From contig CAWHVT010000002.1 of NCBI GenBank assembly GCA_963832855.1, forward strand, positions 476,378 to 540,377: a stretch of 64,000 nt of DNA, in the 5' to 3' direction. Positions 29,656 to 37,794 of this stretch are shown in pieces. The translations under genes were made by a program, and so were the position numbers. This DNA comes from an uncultured Acidobacteriaceae bacterium (GTDB taxonomy: Bacteria > Acidobacteriota > Terriglobia > Terriglobales > Acidobacteriaceae). The notes under the pieces were generated by a model. The model saw only the letters and a program-made list of their open reading frames with translations. It made no database searches and was not told where the DNA came from. Each line of letters starts with the position of its first letter. Position 1 is the first letter of the stretch.

Positions 29656-29721
29656 TTCCCTCACAATTCCGGCCGTTGTGTCTGGTCCATTCTTATCATC
29701 GCCGATGAGACGGCGGTTTAC

Positions 29722-29741
29722 GGCACGAGTAAACTCGTGCC
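29722..29741. repeat. REP-like palindrome
   Basis: GGCACGAG-TAAA-CTCGTGCC. Confidence 0.55.
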
Positions 29742-29968
29742 CTGATACAAAGCCTCCCGGCAGACGTGTTTTTCGGCAAGCTGCAAGGCGTGCCATGACA
29801 CTTCGTGCCCGTCCTGGCTGAATTCCGGCGGCTGGGAAGCCGACGGTACAGCCGGTCAGCCACCCCAACGGCGAAGACCTGTCGTTGGGGGCCCGAGGCA
29901 GGAGAGCAGCGCTACTCGATTGCTGAATTTGCCGAAAGGTTCTATGCGCGAAATGGCGGGGTAAGAGG

Positions 29969-30015
29969 AATGGTGGGCAGTGAGGGACTCGAACCCCCGA
30001 CTTCCTGCTTGTAAG
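29969..30015 (-). repeat. att site: displaced 3' fragment of tRNA-Val
   Basis: Identical to 37716-37762; identity ends at the edge of the anticodon loop. Confidence 0.95.
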
Positions 30016-30123
30016 TCGGTCGGAGATTTTCTCTCTCACTGCCTACCATTTGCTCTAATTATTACAAAATCAGCAACTTCCTGCTAGTCAAAGACGCGCG
30101 GGATTTCTATGGTTATCTATCAC

Positions 30124-30138
30124 TATTACTCAGTAATA
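30124..30138. promoter_or_regulatory. Perfect palindrome TATTACT-C-AGTAATA upstream of the cargo gene
   Basis: Read directly; function inferred. Confidence 0.4.
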
Positions 30139-30148
30139 TCAGAATAGC

Positions 30149-30169
30149 TTCCGCGGTTTTCACCGCGGT
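30149..30169. repeat. Probable integrase arm-type site, left arm
   Basis: TTCCGCGGTTTTCACCGCGGT identical at 37650-37670. Confidence 0.75.
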
Positions 30170-30197
30170 AGAGTGGAGTGCAAATGAGGAAAATCAC

Positions 30198-30434
30198 ATG
30201 GACCTAGACCACCCTATTTTGCGCGAAGAGATCAGGCTGCACGGAAAGCAGTGTTTTTGTGAAGTGGGCGAGCGCCTAGCTTGGGACTACTTACAGGCAG
30301 CGCGCGATGCCCTCAAGCGAAGCGAGATGACACGGCCTATATCACCGCCAATGGAACGTGTGCCCCCGGCGTTTGCACTCTTCTGGAGTCATAGTTCTAA
30401 CTGCAAAAAGTGTAGTGACCAGAATCAGCGCTGA
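30198..30434 (+). CDS. Small Cys/His-rich cargo protein (78 aa)
   Basis: GAGGAAA RBS; H...CxC and H..CxxC motifs. Confidence 0.6.
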   Translation: MDLDHPILREEIRLHGKQCFCEVGERLAWDYLQAARDALKRSEMTRPISPPMERVPPAFALFWSHSSNCKKCSDQNQR

Positions 30435-30453
30435 AACTGCCCCACAGAATGCC

Positions 30454-31188
30454 CTAGGACGCGTCGCCGGGGTCCGGGTGAGGGGTAACCCTGCCTGAAT
30501 CGCCGTCATTGCTGGGAGCAGGCAGCGCAGCGCTGGGAGCTTCGTTGTCAGCGCTGGTGACATTGGCAACCGGCAACTGAAGGCTGGGATCGAAAAAGGC
30601 GAGCTTGGCTTTAACTACCGGACTGATGTGCGCCCACTCGCGTGCGATGCATTCGGGGTGTTGCAGCAAATAAGATTCCGCGAAGTATCCGGCACCGTCG
30701 CTGGGAATGAAATCACAACGGGCCATGACTGCGGCCACTCCGTCCACAGGCGACTGTGTATCTTCGGTGTCGGTCTCAGAGTAGGTAAAACCAAAGAACC
30801 GTCCGCCCGGACGTGCGCCGTCGATTAAGTCTTTCAGGAAAGTTGCAGCGTCAGTGTCGCCAGTGGCGGCGCGTATGAATTGCGCTTCAATGGCTACTTC
30901 GTTCCAGCTTGCACCGGGTTTCAAACCTACTGCGATTGCAGCCGCATTCGGCGCACGCTGACCCGATCTGCGAATTGCGCACTTACGAAAACTGCGATCT
31001 TCGCGGACTTTTCCGCCCGGATTCGGAGAGCTGCCCGGTTGGAACTGGACTGGTGATGGATTGCTTGCGGAGTATGCTGTAGACGGCGGATTTTTCTTGC
31101 GTTTTACTGTGTCGAGCACAACGTGCTGCACGGATTTCTTTTTTGTCTTCTTTGTTGATTTCTTCGGTGCTGTTTTTTTCGTTGCCAT
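30454..31188 (-). CDS. DUF5681-like protein, putative terminase small subunit
   Basis: FQPGSSPNPGGK motif plus WNEVAIEAQFIRAATGDTDAATFLKDLIDG; Lys-rich N-tail; AAAGGAA RBS. Confidence 0.65.
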   Translation of the reverse strand: MATKKTAPKKSTKKTKKKSVQHVVLDTVKRKKNPPSTAYSASNPSPVQFQPGSSPNPGGKVREDRSFRKCAIRRSGQRAPNAAAIAVGLKPGASWNEVAIEAQFIRAATGDTDAATFLKDLIDGARPGGRFFGFTYSETDTEDTQSPVDGVAAVMARCDFIPSDGAGYFAESYLLQHPECIAREWAHISPVVKAKLAFFDPSLQLPVANVTSADNEAPSAALPAPSNDGDSGRVTPHPDPGDAS

Positions 31189-31214
31189 ACTGGTTCCTTT
31201 CGTTAGTTAAGTAA

Positions 31215-31241
31215 GGACTTCACTCAGCGTCAGTGAAATCC
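31215..31241 (-). terminator. Hairpin (possible attenuator) upstream of the TerS-like gene
   Basis: Minus strand GGAUUUCACU-7nt-AGUGAAGUCC with one U.G pair, followed by UUACUUAACU. Confidence 0.4.
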
Positions 31242-31242
31242 C

Positions 31243-31587
31243 TCACGGCATGAACCTTTCCATTCTCGTGCGTGCTCTGGCGCGCTCAGCCCAAAGCAAC
31301 ACCTGCGCTCTCTCTTGCTCCATCGCGCGCCGCGCCCGACACTCCTGATTCTGAAGGCTGCGTAGTGTCGCACTGGGAAATTCGCCATCGATATAAATGC
31401 CACTGCGAACGGCGAGCTTCGCGCGGCTCAGCACCAATGCGCAAGCGCGCCAGTAGCGATGACATGGAGGTTCAGGGAAAGGCGCATTCCAGCGGAGATG
31501 CCGCGCCCGTGGTCGCAGGTTTCCGCGCCGGTCGATCAATTGTGCGAACTGGAGCAATGCGGCGGTTTGTCTATCTTCAATCTTCAT
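31243..31587 (-). CDS. Hypothetical Arg-rich satellite protein (114 aa)
   Basis: GAGGTG RBS before ATG 31587; same strand as the operon. Confidence 0.55.
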   Translation of the reverse strand: MKIEDRQTAALLQFAQLIDRRGNLRPRARHLRWNAPFPEPPCHRYWRACALVLSRAKLAVRSGIYIDGEFPSATLRSLQNQECRARRAMEQERAQVLLWAERARARTRMERFMP

Positions 31588-31607
31588 AGTTCACCTCGAA
31601 AAGTGTT

Positions 31608-31797
31608 GTGCGGGCCGATGGCCTTGAAACACCGGCCCGCACGCGAGCAGCGCAACGTGAGAAGGGCAGGCACGTCGCGCTGCATGTCGAATCTTGCGCG
31701 GCGAGTGGATGAGACAAACACCCGCCGCGCTTTGTGACCGGGAGCAGGAGTATCCCCCGGTGTTCGCCCTCCGAGTGCCTGCCACACCCGGCGCGAA
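31608..31797 (-). ncRNA. Candidate structured RNA: five tandem hairpins
   Basis: Stems of 13, 13, 12, 8 and 8 bp; all six stem mismatches are A.C on plus and therefore G.U on minus. Confidence 0.55.
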
Positions 31798-31807
31798 TTC
31801 AAGATTG

Positions 31808-32317
31808 TTATTGTGGAGCAAACACGCCTCCCACGCGATCTACACCCGACGAATTCTGAAGTTGGTTGATAAAATCACTTTCCGCAAATTCCAACTGCTG
31901 TACGCGCTCCCTGATCCCGATGGCCTCGATCCGAAGCAGTTCGATATTTCCCAGCGTCTGCTTCGCCTTTTTCAACTCCTCCAGCCGCTCGTTGAGGGTG
32001 CGCACGCCGTCAAACCACTGCACGGCTTCTGGCTCATTCGGCAAAAAGTCGCAGACTGCCGGACGGCCAGCAGCATGGTAGCCTTGCGCCGCGATCACCG
32101 ACATCATATTTCTGTGGATGGCATCGAGTTCGGGTTGCGCGTTGAAAATCTTCTTGGCCAGCTTCTCAAACTCGCGCCGTTTGATTTTGAGTTCGCCACG
32201 CACGGCGACAAGGTTGGCAACGAGCTTGGTGCGGCGCTCCTTGCGCTCGGTGGCTTCGATCTCGGCAAGCTGCGCACGCAGTTCGTCGGCGCTAGGTTTT
32301 TTCTTTTTCGTGGTCAT
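31808..32317 (-). CDS. Hypothetical coiled-coil satellite protein (169 aa)
   Basis: AGAAGGGAG RBS; heptad-rich charged helices. Confidence 0.75.
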   Translation of the reverse strand: MTTKKKKPSADELRAQLAEIEATERKERRTKLVANLVAVRGELKIKRREFEKLAKKIFNAQPELDAIHRNMMSVIAAQGYHAAGRPAVCDFLPNEPEAVQWFDGVRTLNERLEELKKAKQTLGNIELLRIEAIGIRERVQQLEFAESDFINQLQNSSGVDRVGGVFAPQ

Positions 32318-32493
32318 GGTCTAGCTCCCTTCTTGGTTGTGTTGCGTTCATCGACTGGCTCGGCCTTCATCCACCAGCCGTCGATAGGTTGGCGCTGTGG
32401 CAGCACCGGTGGAGCAATGGGTACGCCGCTGTCGCCGTAGCGGACAAGACTCCAATAGACGGCATGCAGCCGGTTCAGAACGGCGGGCGTCAT
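32314..32493 (-). CDS. Small hypothetical protein (59 aa), absent from the ORF track
   Basis: MTPAVLNRLHAVYWSLVRYGDSGVPIAPPVLPQRQPIDGWWMKAEPVDERNTTKKGARP*; ATGA overlaps at both ends. Confidence 0.65.
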   Translation of the reverse strand: MTPAVLNRLHAVYWSLVRYGDSGVPIAPPVLPQRQPIDGWWMKAEPVDERNTTKKGARP

Positions 32494-32741
32494 CCTTTGG
32501 CCTCATCTTCCTGACCTTTGCCCAACGCCTCATCGTGGGCCAGAGCGTCGCTGGGTGAAGATGGAGCCTGTCGTGGAATCGAGGTGCGCGATTCCGTGCG
32601 CGTCGGAGTGCTGGTCACGTTCTCGAATGGATCGGTGTTATCGCGCGCCGGGGTTGGGTCGTCGAAATCCGGCGCACCGTTGATAAGCACGTCGCTGGGC
32701 GAGCCGCTGAATTTTCTGTTGTCCCATTTTTGTTCTGCCAT
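32490..32741 (-). CDS. Hypothetical acidic/Pro-rich protein (83 aa)
   Basis: AAGGAGA RBS; coupled to the downstream ORF. Confidence 0.6.
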   Translation of the reverse strand: MAEQKWDNRKFSGSPSDVLINGAPDFDDPTPARDNTDPFENVTSTPTRTESRTSIPRQAPSSPSDALAHDEALGKGQEDEAKG

Positions 32742-32773
32742 GATGATTCTCCTTGTAAGTTAGAAGTTGAGGT

Positions 32774-32968
32774 TTACGGCGTAGGAATTTTGCTTTCCGT
32801 GCCATGTAGAGTGCAACTCAAACTGGTGAAAATCAGACCGCCCACAGGTTTGTGTCTGCCAGTGCAAATGCATTCGCGGCGAACTAGAGGAAGAGTTTCC
32901 CGTGAGCGCTCCAACAATTCAGCTTTGCGCCTCCTGCCAACGCCGCAAATCCCGCTGTTACTTTTCAT
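32774..32968 (-). CDS. Possible small Cys-containing protein (64 aa)
   Basis: ATG 32968 after AGGGGAAGGA; same strand as the operon; competes with an antisense ORF. Confidence 0.35.
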   Translation of the reverse strand: MKSNSGICGVGRRRKAELLERSRETLPLVRRECICTGRHKPVGGLIFTSLSCTLHGTESKIPTP

Positions 32969-33286
32969 GCGATCCTTCCCCTTGGCTGTTTGGTTTCCGC
33001 GAAATCCACCGCAATTTCGCGCTCGAAAAAGAAAAATCATTGAAAGCGCGTGGCTTGCCCACCTGCGACTTCCTGCTTATGAAGCAGCATGGCTGAAAAA
33101 GGCACACGGGCCTGCGGGTTGAAGAGGTCCGCTGGCCCGTGTGGGCGAAGTGGCGAACCACTTTGCACGTGGCGCGTGGAGAGCGGGGACAAGACCACCC
33201 TCCACGTGTTGCGGCGCTGTAGAGGACGCCGCGCATCGGGGCAGACGGAGTGGAATGCCCCGAACTTGATACCGGGAGGGGGTATA

Positions 33287-33386
33287 ACACGCGACAAGTA
33301 CCCGATCTCTGTAAAACTGTCGTTTCTGTCGCGTGTCGTGTGTTGGGAACACGCGACAGTAACGACAGAAAAGACAACAACGACAG
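33287..33386. other. Putative replication origin (iterons)
   Basis: CTGTCGCGTGT/ACACGCGACAG and CTGTCGTT/AACGACAG inverted pairs plus extra copies, just downstream of the primase-helicase. Confidence 0.6.
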
Positions 33387-33427
33387 TAATGTCCATTTAT
33401 CAGTGATCGAGGAATTGTCGTGTGTTC

Positions 33428-35236
33428 TCACCGCTTTTCCTCCACTTTTTGTCCCGGTAGCGACCACTTCACAACCTTCCCCGGTCCCGGTTTATCGCGA
33501 TGCACACCGATCCGGTTGGCTGCGCGCTGCAACATGCGCAGCTCGTGATCGCCCGCTGCCAGCAGATACTCCAGTGTCCGGGGACCAGCGGCTAGTTGCT
33601 TCTTTAGGAACTCTCTTGCGCGTGTCACGCCTGTTTGCGCTTGGGTAGTTTTCTCAGGTGCCGTCAGATCACCCAGTGTGCACTTCGATTCACCCTTCCA
33701 GACCAGCTTGGCATTGTCGGCGTGCTTTTCCTTCACGTCTTCAATGGCGAAACGCAGCCCCGGCGCAGGCTTACCGATTTTGTTTTGTACGGTGAGCATG
33801 TGGCGATTATTCGGCTCGTCAGCACAGGTGCCGATTATGAACTCGATACGCACGCACGCGGAAAAGTCAATCGACCCTATGCCTCTGTGAATGGCCCTGC
33901 CTCCGCTGGCTTTGGAAAGGTGCCTGATGATGACAACTCCGATGTTGTACTTTTTTGCCAGCCGCACAACGTTGTCCATGAGCGGTCGCGTTTCACTGGC
34001 TTTGTGAAAATCGGCGCTGGAGCCAAAGTACGATTGCAAAGGATCGAAGACCACAAGATCGATTTTGTTTTTCTCAATGGCGCGCTCGACGAGTGTGAGA
34101 TCGGCGAACGAAATGCCTGTGCTATTGCCATCGGCGTTTTCCGCTCCTTCAACTACGGCGAAGTGCCGAAAGTCTCCACCAGCCAAACGAAATCGCGCAT
34201 GAAGCACATGCTCAGGGTCGTTTTCATTTGTCACATACAGCGTGCGAAGAACCGGGCACTTCTCGCCGGTGACAGGGACTCTTCCACATGAGAAATCCGC
34301 TGCCGCCTTCACAGTTACGAACGATTTTCCTTCGCCGGGATTGCCTGAGAGCAGAGTGATCTCTCCGCGCGCGATCCGTCCTCTCCAGATGTAGTCCACG
34401 GGCTTTTCCGTGACTTCTGTCAGCCAGCGCATAATCAACCTCCCTTCTCCTTGGGTTTTGCTCGCTTCAAACAACGGCGCTGCACTGCAAAGCGAGTCGA
34501 ACAGTTCCTTGCCGTGTGGTTGTGCCAGCACATCATCAAGGCCGGTCTTACCGTCAGCAGTGAGGCGTGGCAACGATATGATGTGCACCAGCCCGCCGCG
34601 CGCCGTGAGTAGGGCTGCGAGCTTCTCCTGCGCGCGCTGCACGTTCTTGTTTCCGCTGGCGTCGGCGTCGAAGGCCAGATAGACTGTGCGGTTCTTCCAT
34701 TTGATCTTTTGCAGCAAAGGCACAAGCTCAGAGCATTTGCTGGCAGATGCGAATCCGTTGAATACGCCGCCCAGCGAGATCACGATGATTCCGTGTTTGG
34801 CACCGGCTAGTGCACGCGGCTCGCCTTCGCTGAGGATGAGCGGAATTTTCACGTTGCCAAAAATCTCCGGCCACGGCAGGATCGATACACAATAAGGAAC
34901 AGACTCGGTGTTGCTTGATTGCAGGAACTTCACCTTTTCCCCTTTGATCGTGCGCTCAAAGCGGAGACGAAGCCTGCTGCCCGGTTGTAGCCTGCCGGTC
35001 AGCGGATCGTAGTTCCTGAAGTCGAGTCCTTCGCGCGTTTCATCAGTGCGTAAAATGACTCCACACGCTTTCGCGAGAGAGAGATCGCTTCCACGCTGGG
35101 AGAGATATTCTTCAGCCCACTCCTGCGTGGTTTGTTCATGCTGCGGCGTTGGTTTGGATTTTGCGGGAACGAGTCGCGGTTCACGCTTCTGTTTTTTCAG
35201 CGCAGCCGGTGCCTTGAACTTGAGTTTTTCGACCAT
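33428..35236 (-). CDS. Primase-helicase fusion (DUF3854-like Toprim + AAA_25/RecA-type ATPase)
   Basis: ILSEGEP, VYLAFDAD (DxD), Walker A GNPGEGKS, Walker B LVVFDPL, IIRHLSK. Confidence 0.85.
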   Translation of the reverse strand: MVEKLKFKAPAALKKQKREPRLVPAKSKPTPQHEQTTQEWAEEYLSQRGSDLSLAKACGVILRTDETREGLDFRNYDPLTGRLQPGSRLRLRFERTIKGEKVKFLQSSNTESVPYCVSILPWPEIFGNVKIPLILSEGEPRALAGAKHGIIVISLGGVFNGFASASKCSELVPLLQKIKWKNRTVYLAFDADASGNKNVQRAQEKLAALLTARGGLVHIISLPRLTADGKTGLDDVLAQPHGKELFDSLCSAAPLFEASKTQGEGRLIMRWLTEVTEKPVDYIWRGRIARGEITLLSGNPGEGKSFVTVKAAADFSCGRVPVTGEKCPVLRTLYVTNENDPEHVLHARFRLAGGDFRHFAVVEGAENADGNSTGISFADLTLVERAIEKNKIDLVVFDPLQSYFGSSADFHKASETRPLMDNVVRLAKKYNIGVVIIRHLSKASGGRAIHRGIGSIDFSACVRIEFIIGTCADEPNNRHMLTVQNKIGKPAPGLRFAIEDVKEKHADNAKLVWKGESKCTLGDLTAPEKTTQAQTGVTRAREFLKKQLAAGPRTLEYLLAAGDHELRMLQRAANRIGVHRDKPGPGKVVKWSLPGQKVEEKR

Positions 35237-35406
35237 GTCCGCTCCGTCAACCAAAATCTTTGTGCTCTAAAAGGCCGCTGTTGTTCGTGTGTTTTACGCG
35301 CCCATCCGCTGAACAAGCAGGCGTTCGCAGGTAGGCAGGTTGCACACTTTAAACGATCCCCCTGCGCGGACCGCGCCAACCGCGGCGAAAAATGCGGAAA
35401 TCGTGG

Positions 35407-35628
35407 TCACCGGCGCGCCTTCCGTGCGGGCACGGTCCCAGCATCGATCAACCTGTCGAGCACATCCTGAGGGATGCAGACACTACGCCCGATGTGGACG
35501 TGCTCAATCTGTCTCCGCCAAATCCACTGGCGCAACGTCGCGACCTTCACCGCGCCGCCCAGATATTCAGCCGCCTTAGGGATGCGAAACAGGCGGCGCT
35601 GAGTTCGAGTGTTTTGTTGGACTGCCAT
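35407..35628 (-). CDS. Excisionase/AlpA-like HTH protein
   Basis: LFRIPKAAEYLG...TLRQWIWRRQI...IGRSVCIP; AGGAGG RBS. Confidence 0.85.
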   Translation of the reverse strand: MAVQQNTRTQRRLFRIPKAAEYLGGAVKVATLRQWIWRRQIEHVHIGRSVCIPQDVLDRLIDAGTVPARKARR

Positions 35629-35724
35629 CGGAGTCCTCCTGTGTTTATTACCTCTCAGGCTCTCTCGCGTGTGTGACTTTTCTTTGTTAAACTATTTTTA
35701 GCTGTTTAGTGCTAACATCAATGT

Positions 35725-36414
35725 ATGGCGAGTCACGGCCCACTTCCCGTCTACTTCCTCGATGAAACAGCGCTGGTGCGAATGCGCGACTTCCTGAACG
35801 ATGGCAAATGCGGGCGGGAGACTATTGATGAAGGAGACCGGACCGAACTCCGCACACTGATTGACGATTGGCTGGGGGCCGGAAAGAACTGGCGGCGATT
35901 CATCGCTCGCAGGCTGAAGGCGCATAGGTCTGTGGGCTTCACAAGTGGGACGTTCAATATCCCATCGCACACGGCGCGTCCTGTTCCTGTTCACTACCCC
36001 GCACCGAAGGCAACGTATGCGGAAGGTGTATTCCTTCAATTCATCCTTCATCCTGAACGCGAACAACTGGACGGCCCATGCCGCCGCGTGAATTGCGGGC
36101 GCTACTTTCTGCGCGAGACCGCACATCCGAAGGTGTACTGCTCACGAGCTTGCGCCACTAAGGACTCTGCGGTTTTCGCAATGCGCGAGAAACGAGAGGA
36201 TGAATTCCGTGAACTGAAAAAGAGAGTGTTGAGCGCCATTGCAAGGTACACGGACAATCGGCGGCAAGGCGACTGGCGCATCTATGTTGAAACCGAAACG
36301 GGCGTCACAGTGCGCACCCTGAACGGCTGGGTCAAAAGGAGATTCATCAAAGCTCCGCCCACCGCCCGGAGACGCGTAAACCAACCACCAAGAAAACCGA
36401 CGAGAAGGAGATGA
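35725..36414 (+). CDS. CGNR-type zinc-finger protein, putative element regulator
   Basis: CRRVNCGRYF...YCSRAC; basic C-terminal helices; divergent from the xis-like gene. Confidence 0.7.
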   Translation: MASHGPLPVYFLDETALVRMRDFLNDGKCGRETIDEGDRTELRTLIDDWLGAGKNWRRFIARRLKAHRSVGFTSGTFNIPSHTARPVPVHYPAPKATYAEGVFLQFILHPEREQLDGPCRRVNCGRYFLRETAHPKVYCSRACATKDSAVFAMREKREDEFRELKKRVLSAIARYTDNRRQGDWRIYVETETGVTVRTLNGWVKRRFIKAPPTARRRVNQPPRKPTRRR

Positions 36415-36418
36415 ACCG

Positions 36419-37702
36419 ATGGGACTCTATCGACAATCAGGGAGCAAAATCTTCGCGATAGATTTTGTCTTTCATGGCAGGCGCATCCGCCGAACTACGG
36501 GGCTAACCCGCAAGCAGGATGCGCGTGAATTCTTCGACAACTTCAAAGAGGACCTCAAGAAAAAGGCAGCGGGCATTCAAAAAAAGAAACAGCCTGATTT
36601 CTTCAAAGATGCCGCGGCAAAGTGGCAGGAACACAAACTCGCAAAGGGCAAATGGAAAAGCGCCAAGACGCGAGACATTGCCCGTGTTGCTCTGAATCAC
36701 ATCTTGCCCCGCCTAGGCGACCTGCTCCTAATTGAGGTTGAGTCTAATCACATTACTGGGTATCAGGAGTTTCGCAAACAGCAAGGTGCAAGTGACCGAA
36801 CCATCGATATTGAAGTCTCTGTGGTTCGGCAAGTCTTGCAGAAATACGGTCGCTGGGAAGCGTTGAAAGAGGATGTGGATTCAAAGTTGGATGAAGAGAA
36901 GGAAGTAGGCCGAGTGCTCACTGCCGAACAGCAGCGCATCCTACTCACTGAATGCTCTCGGTCCGCATCGCGCGGCCTGTTGCCTTTCGTTGTGCTCGCA
37001 ATTGAGTGCGGCGCTCGTTATGGTGTCATCCGCAAACTGCAATGGGGCGGGGTGGATTTTGTGAACCGCACCGTCCGATTCGGCAAAGACAAAACGAAAT
37101 CAGGCACAGGTCGAACCATTCCACTGAATCAACGGGCCGTGTCAGCTTTGACCTTTTGGGCGGAGCAGTTCCCCGACCGCGAGGCGGAGCACTATGTCTT
37201 TCCATCGGAGAAGTACGGCCTCCACGGGACCAAAGGCGAATTTGGCGGTCGTGTGGAGGTCTTCGAATGCGACCCGAAAAAGCCGGTTGGTTCCATTTCC
37301 TCCGCGTGGGAAACCGCTCGCGCAGCGACGCGGCATCATTGCCCGGAGTGCGATGGAATACTGATTGATTGTGCGAAACCGGCAAGCGGGTACGTCTGCG
37401 ACTCTTGCCGTTTCGAGACCGCGGAACTTCCCGAAGGGGTAAGTCGCTTCCGGTTCCACGATCTCCGCCACAGTTGTGTTACGCGTCTAGTCCAAGGCGG
37501 AACACCCGTCGTCAAGATCGCCAAGCTCGTGGGTTGGAGCAATTCGACAGCGATAAAGATGGCGCTGCGCTACTCCCATCCTTCAACCGAAGACTTGCGG
37601 GCCGATGTGGAAGCAGCGAGCCTGCCAGAACCCCCGGAGTCCAATCCAGTTCCGCGGTTTTCACCGCGGTCGGATGATCCGGGCAACGTCAACGTAAACT
37701 AA
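36419..37702 (+). CDS. int: Tyrosine recombinase/integrase
   Basis: ECGARYG (R), KTK (K), HDLRH, LVGW, LRYSH (Y); ends next to att. Confidence 0.95.
   Translation: MGLYRQSGSKIFAIDFVFHGRRIRRTTGLTRKQDAREFFDNFKEDLKKKAAGIQKKKQPDFFKDAAAKWQEHKLAKGKWKSAKTRDIARVALNHILPRLGDLLLIEVESNHITGYQEFRKQQGASDRTIDIEVSVVRQVLQKYGRWEALKEDVDSKLDEEKEVGRVLTAEQQRILLTECSRSASRGLLPFVVLAIECGARYGVIRKLQWGGVDFVNRTVRFGKDKTKSGTGRTIPLNQRAVSALTFWAEQFPDREAEHYVFPSEKYGLHGTKGEFGGRVEVFECDPKKPVGSISSAWETARAATRHHCPECDGILIDCAKPASGYVCDSCRFETAELPEGVSRFRFHDLRHSCVTRLVQGGTPVVKIAKLVGWSNSTAIKMALRYSHPSTEDLRADVEAASLPEPPESNPVPRFSPRSDDPGNVNVN
37650..37670. repeat. Probable integrase arm-type site, right arm
   Basis: Identical 21-mer to 30149-30169. 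Confidence 0.75.
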
Positions 37703-37717
37703 ATTATTGATTTCAAA
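37700..37717 (-). promoter_or_regulatory. IHF consensus site beside att
   Basis: Minus strand AATCAA-TAAT-TTA matches WATCAANNNNTTR. Confidence 0.6.
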
Positions 37718-37794
37718 TGGTGGGCAGTGAGGGACTCGAACCCCCGACTTCCTGCTTGTAAGGCAGGCGCTCTAACCAACTGAGCTAACCGCCC
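37718..37794 (-). tRNA. tRNA-Val (anticodon TAC), CCA encoded
   Basis: GGGCGGT/ACTGCCC acceptor stem, CCTGC-CTTACAA-GCAGG anticodon arm, TTCGAGT T-loop. Confidence 0.98.

Follow-up and report, generated by a model that had tools for sequence, protein, structure and literature searches.

A small integrative element in a tRNA-Val gene of an acidobacterium and a family of candidate phage satellites in Terriglobia

What kind of mobile DNA carries its own integrase, replicase and apparent replication origin, and no recognizable genes for building a phage particle or for conjugation? The question is raised by positions 29969-37762 of a 64,000-nt stretch of DNA from an uncultured Acidobacteriaceae bacterium (the whole stretch is called the window below), where a 7.75-kb insert occupies a tRNA-Val gene in a hopanoid gene neighborhood. 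An original prediction, made from the letters of the window, had described it as a miniature helper-dependent phage satellite of the kind known as phage-inducible chromosomal islands (PICIs), which include the Staphylococcus aureus pathogenicity islands (SaPIs). We read the insert as an apparently intact, integrative and self-replicating element that represents a new family, and we find the same compact layout at other tRNA genes of related bacteria. The single most likely reading of its way of life, to which we give a probability of about one half, is that of a helper-phage satellite, because conjugation genes are absent, the replicase is of the phage type and the layout is that of proven minimal satellites.

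The element and its tRNA-Val site

The limits of the element are set by the 47-nt duplication that had been predicted. The attL core (29969..30015) duplicates the 3′-terminal 45 nt of tRNA-Val together with 2 nt more and matches exactly the attR core (37716..37762), which supplies the 3′ part of the intact gene (tRNA-Val, 37718-37794, minus strand). A repeat finder placed the direct repeat at 29969-30022 and 37716-37769, whereas a base-by-base reading gives 47 identical nucleotides followed at once by divergence, and the probability of meeting an exact 47-mer by chance in 64 kb is negligible. ARAGORN reports tRNA-Val(tac) as the single tRNA in the 64-kb window, Rfam agrees (74.4 bits), and this tRNA is the sole Rfam match over the whole element. 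The GC content between the repeats is 0.556, compared with 0.609 and 0.610 in the 20 kb on each side. The DNA thus shows a site-specific insertion into the 3′ half of tRNA-Val(TAC) that regenerates the tRNA and leaves hpnE on one side of the element and an hpnK-like gene on the other. At the left end, the first 19 nt of the core (29969-29987) have an element-borne inverted-repeat partner (30032..30050, 89% complementary over 19 nt), and the two arms bracket the attL core; the arm on the element resembles an extended acceptor stem, and a weak pseudo-tRNA signal covers 29974-30044 (Rfam tRNA, 23.7 bits).

Next to attR lies the gene for a tyrosine integrase (int, 36419..37702, plus strand), which has the marks expected of this class of recombinase, namely a catalytic domain above the cut-off (PF00589, 70.9 bits; cut-off 27.1), a match to phrog_1 (4e-47) and an att core in the 3′ half of a tRNA gene. 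Residues ~301-333 of the protein (37319-37417) form a four-Cys zinc-ribbon insertion in the catalytic domain, with weak HVO_2753 matches, that is kept in the integrase of the related element L025 (relatives are given L numbers throughout). Located 4 nt upstream of int is a gene for a 229-aa Zn-ribbon protein (zf, 35725..36414, plus strand; C-x4-C...YCS-x2-C) with weak DUF6076 and zf-CGNR matches, a candidate regulator or integrase partner.

At the other att end, a gene for a 78-aa Cys-rich protein (30198..30434, plus strand) points inward and is convergent with the gene for a DUF5681-like protein. The 78-aa protein has no family match in Pfam, PHROGs, NCBIfam or PADLOC, and its gene had originally been taken for convergent cargo. 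This view is not supported by L025, where a homologue (E 2e-10) occupies the same position: each of the two elements has the gene at the att end opposite int and in the orientation of int, so that excision would place it downstream of zf-int across attP. We suggest that the gene probably belongs to the module for integration and excision, or that circularization switches it; if it does belong to the integration module, then the window element is without any cargo. The DNA around the cores offers a further parallel between the two elements. A 21-nt hairpin repeat, TTCCGCGGTTTTCACCGCGGT, is present on the P′ side (30149..30169) and, as an exact second copy, on the P side within the 3′ end of int (37650..37670), and after excision and circularization the copies would lie 46 and 133 nt from the core, one on each side. 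In L025 a different, unrelated 22-nt repeat is found with the same geometry, at 43 and 136 nt from its own core. Both repeats could be arm-type integrase sites. The gene set for integration and excision in the window element is complete.

A divergent control region of 96 bp (35629..35724) separates the rightward zf-int operon from the leftward replication operon. No match to the sigma-70 consensus was found in these 96 bp, promoter and terminator scans stayed at chance level, and no operator motif common to the intergenic regions was found. The first gene of the leftward operon encodes a HTH_17/excisionase-family protein of the AlpA/Xis type (35407..35628, minus strand; PF12728, 30.1 bits; TIGR01764, 29.9 bits, cut-off 28.8; phrog_66). 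It is followed by the gene for a 608-aa primase-helicase (33428..35254, minus strand), which joins a DUF3854/Toprim N-terminal part (69 and 25.9 bits) to a C-terminal RecA-type ATPase of the AAA_25/KaiC/DnaB-like kind (AAA_25, 83 bits), and which matches phrog_239, primase/helicase (2e-14); its distant homologues are annotated as primase/helicase in actinophages. Immediately 3′ of the gene for this enzyme, largely within a non-coding region of 686 bases (32742..33427), CGACA/TGTCG units with a period of ~9 bp form inverted arrays (33286-33430) that make up a candidate replication origin. In L008, whose primase is 47% identical, the same TGTCG motif is found at the same location, and in L009, whose primase is 45% identical, a different array of 8-bp TTTGACG iterons starts 3 nt past the stop codon. 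As the position of the iterons is kept and their motif differs with the replicase, the array looks like the cognate origin of the adjacent enzyme.

Beyond the origin follow ORFs of 83 aa (32490..32741) and 59 aa (32314..32493) and the gene for a 169-aa coiled-coil protein (31808..32317), all on the minus strand and coupled by 4-nt overlaps, then the gene for a conserved 114-aa protein (31243..31587, minus strand) and, as the last gene of the operon, that for the DUF5681-like protein of 244 aa (30454..31188, minus strand). Every ORF named in the original prediction exists, and the gene anatomy was confirmed in each structural detail. Its statement that structural and conjugation genes are absent was likewise borne out by Pfam and PHROGs scans, in which no capsid, portal, large terminase (TerL), tail, lysis, relaxase or type IV secretion system (T4SS) family was matched among the element proteins, and we agree with it that the regulator and the small proteins fit no known PICI family.

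A family of compact elements in Terriglobia

A first search for the DUF5681-like protein returned few close relatives; a profile search found 52. Among 1.84 billion cluster representatives there were 67 matches at E <= 1e-30, 183 at <= 1e-10 and 1,928 at <= 1e-3. All six matches in a set of species-representative genomes belong to Acidobacteriota/Terriglobales, in accordance with the acidobacterial host that had been proposed, and one of them is the cultured Occallatibacter savannae AB23, which has a 9.9-kb member of the family at tRNA-Asn (NZ_QFFY01000006.1, ~126-147 kb). In Terriglobia about 15 distinct elements of 7.7-10 kb were recognized, that of the cultured strain among them, and every genomic context fetched has a common gene order: HTH_17, large primase/helicase, non-coding gap, a coiled-coil protein of 165-250 aa, a protein of ~85-120 aa, the DUF5681-like protein, variable genes and tyrosine integrase. 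With the element limits taken as 41-50-nt repeats of the tRNA 3′ end, members are found in tRNA-Thr (L001, 9.0 kb), tRNA-Arg (L009, 8.3 kb), tRNA-Lys (L018, 8.8 kb), tRNA-Glu (L022, 8.4 kb) and tRNA-Asn (L023, 9.9 kb), in addition to the 7.75-kb window element in tRNA-Val. ORFs of the size needed for TerL, portal or major capsid protein are missing from every member, as is any signal of these proteins, and no relaxase, coupling protein or T4SS family was found in the window element or its relatives.

What holds the family together is a module of three genes, those for the coiled-coil, the ~110-aa and the DUF5681-like protein. By tblastn and hidden Markov models (HMMs) the trio is found together in L001, L002-7/L021, L008, L009-13, L014/15, L018, L019, L020 and L022, and two of its three proteins in L023. 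Taken singly, the 169-aa coiled-coil protein has tblastn or HMM matches in L001, L002-7, L008, L009-13, L014 and L018-L023, and the HMM of the 114-aa protein marks a neighbor of the DUF5681-like gene in 10 element types. The 59- and 83-aa ORFs are poorly conserved, with no tblastn matches in the relatives. The replicase, on the other hand, is swapped among elements between three types (DUF3854+AAA_25, DUF3854+DUF5906 and NrS1-type prim-pol+AAA_25) with the trio retained, which argues that the trio has a selected, family-specific function. A replicase with its cognate origin and family-wide selection on a three-gene module are thus what the comparison points to. HMMs of the three conserved proteins gave coiled-coil noise only when compared with the PDB, and we found no named family for the trio; we consider this family of small, tRNA-targeting, replicating elements previously undescribed.

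The slot after the DUF5681-like gene is variable, and slots of this kind are also found in satellites. In L014 it is taken by a HEPN RiboL-PSP protein, in L009 by a Sel1 protein, in L016 by a type III restriction-modification pair, and elsewhere by membrane or unknown proteins; among these cargo genes PADLOC recognized only that of L016 as a known defense system. In five relatives a gene for a small serine recombinase (resolvase/invertase type) comes next after the DUF5681-like gene or is separated from it by one small ORF (L016:2326-2907, L019:10809-11393, L022:10893-11489, L023:10685-11434 and L027:5091-5906), and it could serve the resolution of multimers or concatemers. Two observations concern single lineages. 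An IS630-type DDE_3 transposase gene lies just upstream of the coiled-coil gene in L004 (L004:17-1090), and five sibling contigs (the left ends of L002-L007) all break ~200 bp upstream of that gene, which suggests an insertion sequence within this tRNA-Thr element lineage. Immediately outside the tRNA-Arg gene that hosts the L009-L011 element is a HigB-like toxin/HTH_3 antitoxin pair (L009:8174-8849).

Two larger elements are sisters of the family. L025 is a 13.4-kb element (L025:4283-17725) in the same tRNA-Val gene, beside the same hpnK-like/ydjC and GT4 genes, and is the only other occupant that we found at the site of the window element; its integrase, zf partner and HTH_17 protein are 48, 32 and 39% identical to those of the window. 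L027 is a whole contig of ~14.7 kb bounded by tRNA-end repeats. Both carry a front end of HTH_17, primase and DUF5681 genes, and both encode a protein of 628 (L025) or 635 aa (L027) with tape-measure PHROG matches over most of its length (phrog_2276, 1e-33 and 3e-17; mutual E 1e-57) and a lysozyme domain at its end, to which L027 adds a phrog_587 "structural protein" with a Phage_Wedge1 domain. Neither has genes of the size of TerL, portal or capsid genes, and L025 lacks two of the defining proteins of the 8-10 kb family, the coiled-coil and the ~110-aa one. The tape-measure/lysozyme and structural-like genes tie the wider group to the biology of tailed phages, which makes the satellite reading modestly more likely. 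They also allow another view, weighed below, in which the window element has arisen from such elements by reduction.

Phage satellite or another kind of mobile element?

The gene order of the element is similar to that of PICIs and SaPIs, as had been proposed. Alike are int at one end, a divergent region headed by an AlpA/Xis-type HTH_17/excisionase-family gene, pri-rep followed by an adjacent iteron origin, a group of small genes of which the last encodes a putative DNA-binding protein, an accessory slot, and the lack of structural or lytic genes. Among PICI-specific families, Stl, Ppi, Cpm, Rpp and a phage-type small terminase (TerS) have no match in the window element, and searches of Pfam, PHROGs and NCBIfam gave no TerS and no interference family (ppi, cpm, rpp). 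Gram-negative PICIs are 10-12 kb in size. With 7.75 kb for the window element and 7.7-9.9 kb for the family, the window element has about half the usual size, Gram-positive PICIs being typically ~15 kb (PMC6092414).

A closer parallel in scale is the PICMI, a 6.1-kb element with int, iolg, alpA, prim, two unknown genes and no terS, which is an experimentally proven satellite of Vibrionaceae inserted beside fis and for which helper dependence and packaging of concatemers have been demonstrated (PMC10803314). The two have in common their very small size, an int closely coupled to a small partner gene, a regulator of the AlpA type, a primase, a few unknown proteins, and the lack of terS, capsid-remodeling and structural genes. 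The present element differs in its tRNA-Val site, its host in Acidobacteriota, its larger primase-helicase with a recognizable iteron origin, and the conserved three-gene module of its family, which is not described for PICMIs; the two groups are set apart here by site, host and gene descriptions. P4-like satellites, too, use tRNA genes as integration sites, and besides int they encode a HTH protein of the Vis/AlpA type and a large primase-helicase by which replication is initiated at repeats close by. The relatives L001, L019, L023 and L028 carry the D5_N/DUF5906 helicase type, which is typical of P4-family primases. The replicase of the window, however, has an AAA_25/RecA-type ATPase where P4 has a superfamily 3 ATPase, and none of the ten element proteins has a PHROG match to Psu, Sid, Delta or Epsilon/Cnr. 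Tycheposons of Prochlorococcus are another group of tRNA-targeting elements with a tyrosine recombinase and variable cargo, some of them with a primase-helicase module and satellite-like features, in a different host and with different gene families. The gene families of integrative and conjugative or mobilizable elements (relaxase, coupling protein, T4SS) are absent from the element and its relatives, where an unrecognized oriT is possible. In layout, then, the window element resembles PICIs, P4 and PICMIs, and it is a member of none of them.

A number of results weigh against a satellite, and they are brought together here. By SatelliteFinder-style classification the SaPI/PICI membership originally claimed does not hold: the int, AlpA-like and primase genes of the window make at most a 'Type C' set, a pattern that was set aside as ambiguous when these genes occur alone, and such sets may be other kinds of mobile element (PMC10085698). 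The 64-kb window contains no prophage. Among 50,697 phage records we found no similarity to the element except a distant primase match, and no DNA in common with any phage record that would point to the same cos or pac site, and scans of IMG/VR with the DUF5681 family and the primase gave no relatives. Seven public runs contain the element, all as assembled contigs; peat, soil and sediment studies are among its sources (runs X1-X4). In the best of them its depth is 18.9-19.2 compared with 19-22.8 for the flanks, contigs on the locus break at the att repeats with no joint that skips or circularizes the element, and JGI metagenome contigs contain neither the attB nor the attP junction as an exact string; coming from contigs, these depth and junction results are uninformative rather than negative on excision. 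None of the 7-9 kb contigs is circular, and a 7,759-bp Logan contig is merely the unitig between the att repeats. The contig data show a quiescent, single-copy, integrated state and are silent on inducibility. The helper dependence stated in the original prediction is reached by elimination, with no helper phage, excision junction or excess of copy number found.

The DUF5681-like protein, which had been labeled TerS-like, adds to the same side. Its match to DUF5681 (PF18932) is 24.5 bits, below the Pfam gathering cut-off of 27.5; all 50 family members match DUF5681 at E <= 0.1 (best 4.6e-12), and the L025 protein scores 35.6 bits. No TerS family was matched in Pfam, PHROGs or NCBIfam by the window protein or its 49 relatives, and their PHROG matches (phrog_26239, phrog_4114 and phrog_26081) are to families without an assigned function. 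The protein has a basic N-terminus, the motif RKKNPP...SPNPGGK and a four-helix core, which in an AlphaFold2 model built from a 50-sequence alignment (pLDDT 70; 56.6, with no PDB match, for a shallow first model) spans residues 63-122 at pLDDT 90-97 between disordered basic and acidic parts. Solved TerS structures are included in the PDB. Despite the confident core, Foldseek found no match to the model in the PDB or BFVD (best BFVD matches at E > 0.3, one of the matches, at E 2.6, being a "DUF5681 domain-containing protein"), and an HMM of the DUF5681-like family had no match in the PDB. With tblastn, the window protein and five relatives had no usable match in phages.

There is nevertheless a connection between DUF5681 and the terminase genes of phages. 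Salmonella phage STGO-35-1 encodes a DUF5681 protein (PMC8954984), whose gene lies 128 nt upstream of TerL on the circular map; homologues of the protein occur in 302 phage records. Six annotated genomes were inspected, and in each of them the homologue, labeled DUF5681 or 'hypothetical', abuts or overlaps TerL (MW477799 46936-47355, MG592644 1-437, MG592439 1-447, MZ375340 30487-30933, KJ395778 1717-2064 and MK947460 1-447), and the portal gene follows within two genes past TerL in the four phages where that region is visible. A place beside TerL is the canonical slot of TerS, and on this positional ground the phage proteins are likely to be the unannotated small terminase of these siphoviruses. 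The group comprises ~45-kb Salmonella, Klebsiella, Escherichia and Vibrio siphoviruses; the STGO-35-1 protein has also been found in the virion proteome. The TerS of phage Jersey was tried as a DUF5681 member and is not one. The proteins of the elements share with those of the phages (the STGO-35-1/Skate group and Vibrio siphoviruses) the Pfam family label, a basic N-terminus with F..(N/Q)P..(R/K)G(K), and a short helical domain followed by a strand of the VFV.SDGDGRP or VFEVDFPDDGTP kind. They differ in that the phage proteins end in a coiled coil and their genes overlap TerL, both of which are missing in the elements. Compared by hhalign with seven TerL-adjacent phage DUF5681 proteins, the acidobacterial family gave a probability of 0.25% and E 0.24, which is not significant and belongs with the points against a satellite, although the register still aligns the common motifs (basic F..NP..G(K/R), the LL..AL helix and the VF.V..DG.P strand). 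With a sub-threshold DUF5681 match, no TerS profile, no fold match and this hhalign result, the TerS-like label is not supported, and we regard a small-terminase role of the DUF5681-like protein as not confirmed.

How far do other readings account for the same facts? The element might be an integrated plasmid-like replicon or an integrative mobilizable element, mobilized in trans via an unrecognized oriT or alternating between chromosome and episome, with a trio that serves replication control, partition or maintenance and not packaging. We rank this second, as possible and on the whole rather unlikely. It draws on the place of the DUF5681-like gene, which is always the last of the replication operon and in L008 comes directly after the origin, on the resolvase-type serine recombinases beside that gene in L016, L019, L022, L023 and L027, which fit plasmid-like multimer resolution just as well as anything a satellite would need, on the lack of any kind of TerS signal and of relatives in viral collections, and on the view that Type C sets may be other mobile elements (PMC10085698). 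Against these stand the absence of relaxase, coupling protein and any other conjugation family from every member, a tblastn search with the DUF5681-like protein that found nothing in 72,556 plasmids, contigs that are neither circular nor in excess coverage, a replicase of the phage type, and sister elements with phage tail-like genes.

Those sister elements suggest another origin, in which the window element is a stripped-down derivative of the 13-15 kb type represented by L025 and L027, which have the int/zf/HTH_17/DUF5681 backbone in common with it and could be satellites that donate tail or ejection proteins, or very small phage relics. In favor are the occupation of the same tRNA-Val/hpnK site by L025, with its related int, zf and HTH_17 genes and its homologue of the 78-aa protein, and the 628/635-aa tape-measure-like protein and phrog_587 structural protein of the larger type. 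However, two proteins of the trio, the coiled-coil and the ~110-aa one, are missing from L025, elements of 8-10 kb are the common and conserved form across six tRNA targets, and the ORFs of the window are intact and tightly packed with no pseudogene remnants of tail genes, and we regard the derivation as improbable. Still less credit is due to a decayed prophage remnant that is no longer mobile, which would have explained the phage-like int, excisionase and primase-helicase without morphogenesis genes, and also the lack of an excision signal in metagenome contigs. The 47-nt att repeats are perfect and the ORFs are intact and translationally coupled, and the same compact architecture recurs in ~15 diverged elements with different replicases at six tRNA genes, with no TerL, portal or capsid gene, an outcome that random decay would not repeat; the relatives are a coherent 7.7-10 kb family without structural modules, where a deleted prophage had been expected to have relatives with full ones. 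On this conservation across the family we reject the decayed-prophage reading, the odds of which we put as very low.

Proposed cycle, significance and surroundings

If the element is a helper-phage satellite, as we favor, its cycle could run as follows. The leftward operon would be activated at the 96-bp divergent region by a signal, whose most likely source is a helper phage that infects the cell or is induced in it. The HTH_17/excisionase-type protein together with the integrase would then excise the element at the 47-nt cores, with the 21-nt repeats as arm sites; the Zn-finger partner and the 78-aa protein may assist, the gene of the latter lying downstream of int only in the circle. The Toprim/RecA-type primase-helicase would fire the iteron origin 3′ of its own gene and amplify the circle by theta or rolling-circle replication. 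Finally, the trio (the coiled-coil and ~110-aa proteins and the DUF5681-like, DNA-binding one) would divert the packaging of the helper, and the element would leave by machinery that is not its own, in particles made by the helper. The sequence itself shows the site-specific insertion, the intact modules, where the origin lies and how the family is conserved; we infer induction, replication in vivo and, above all, packaging driven by the trio.

A bolder version of the satellite reading, which we offer tentatively and regard as somewhat doubtful, is that these are the first phage satellites of Acidobacteriota and a new family, that the trio is a hijack module with the DUF5681-like protein as an analogue of TerS with no detectable relation in sequence or fold to any known TerS, and that L025 and L027, equipped with tape-measure/lysozyme and baseplate-like proteins of their own, represent a so far undescribed type of satellite. 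Acidobacteriota are among the most abundant soil bacteria, and their phages and mobile elements are barely known; in the literature we found no report of satellites in this phylum. An island of int, AlpA and primase is in itself of a familiar kind. What is new is a well-delimited family of them in a poorly studied soil phylum, with a cultured carrier, Occallatibacter savannae AB23, which makes the question accessible to bench work. By moving between tRNA genes with a variable slot for cargo, elements of 8-10 kb would provide a path for gene flow in soil, possibly also for phage defense, the cargo of one relative being a type III restriction-modification system. Should the elements prove helper-dependent, they would represent satellitism that arose independently, with a packaging or hijack module of a new kind, and would provide a first testable function for DUF5681 proteins.

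The surroundings of the element confirm the hopanoid neighborhood that had been described. On the left are HpnJ (760 bits) and HpnE (447 bits), with IspG further left, and on the right is the HpnK-like protein (197 bits, below its own cut-off of 232.6), followed by BshA. The true start of hpnE is 29655, and the longer ORF that reaches 30039 is an artefact of the ORF listing. A DUF5681-like protein identical to that of the window, with the same hpnE neighbor, is found in a public metagenome-assembled genome (L029; GCA_049688995.1, JBAVLL010000019.1) and in a 1.0-Mb metagenome contig (L030; ERZ25039519 contig_29642), and in seven contigs in all. Between hpnE and attL there are two GC-rich hairpin motifs, 29718-29754 (GGCACGAG-TAAA-CTCGTGCC) and 29847-29894 (CCCCAACG...CGTTGGGG). 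Metagenome contigs that are otherwise unrelated pile up on these motifs in very large numbers, their ends loose on either side, and in run X4 the depth reaches 596 as against ~3 nearby; the motifs look like dispersed repeats of the REP (repetitive extragenic palindromic) type.

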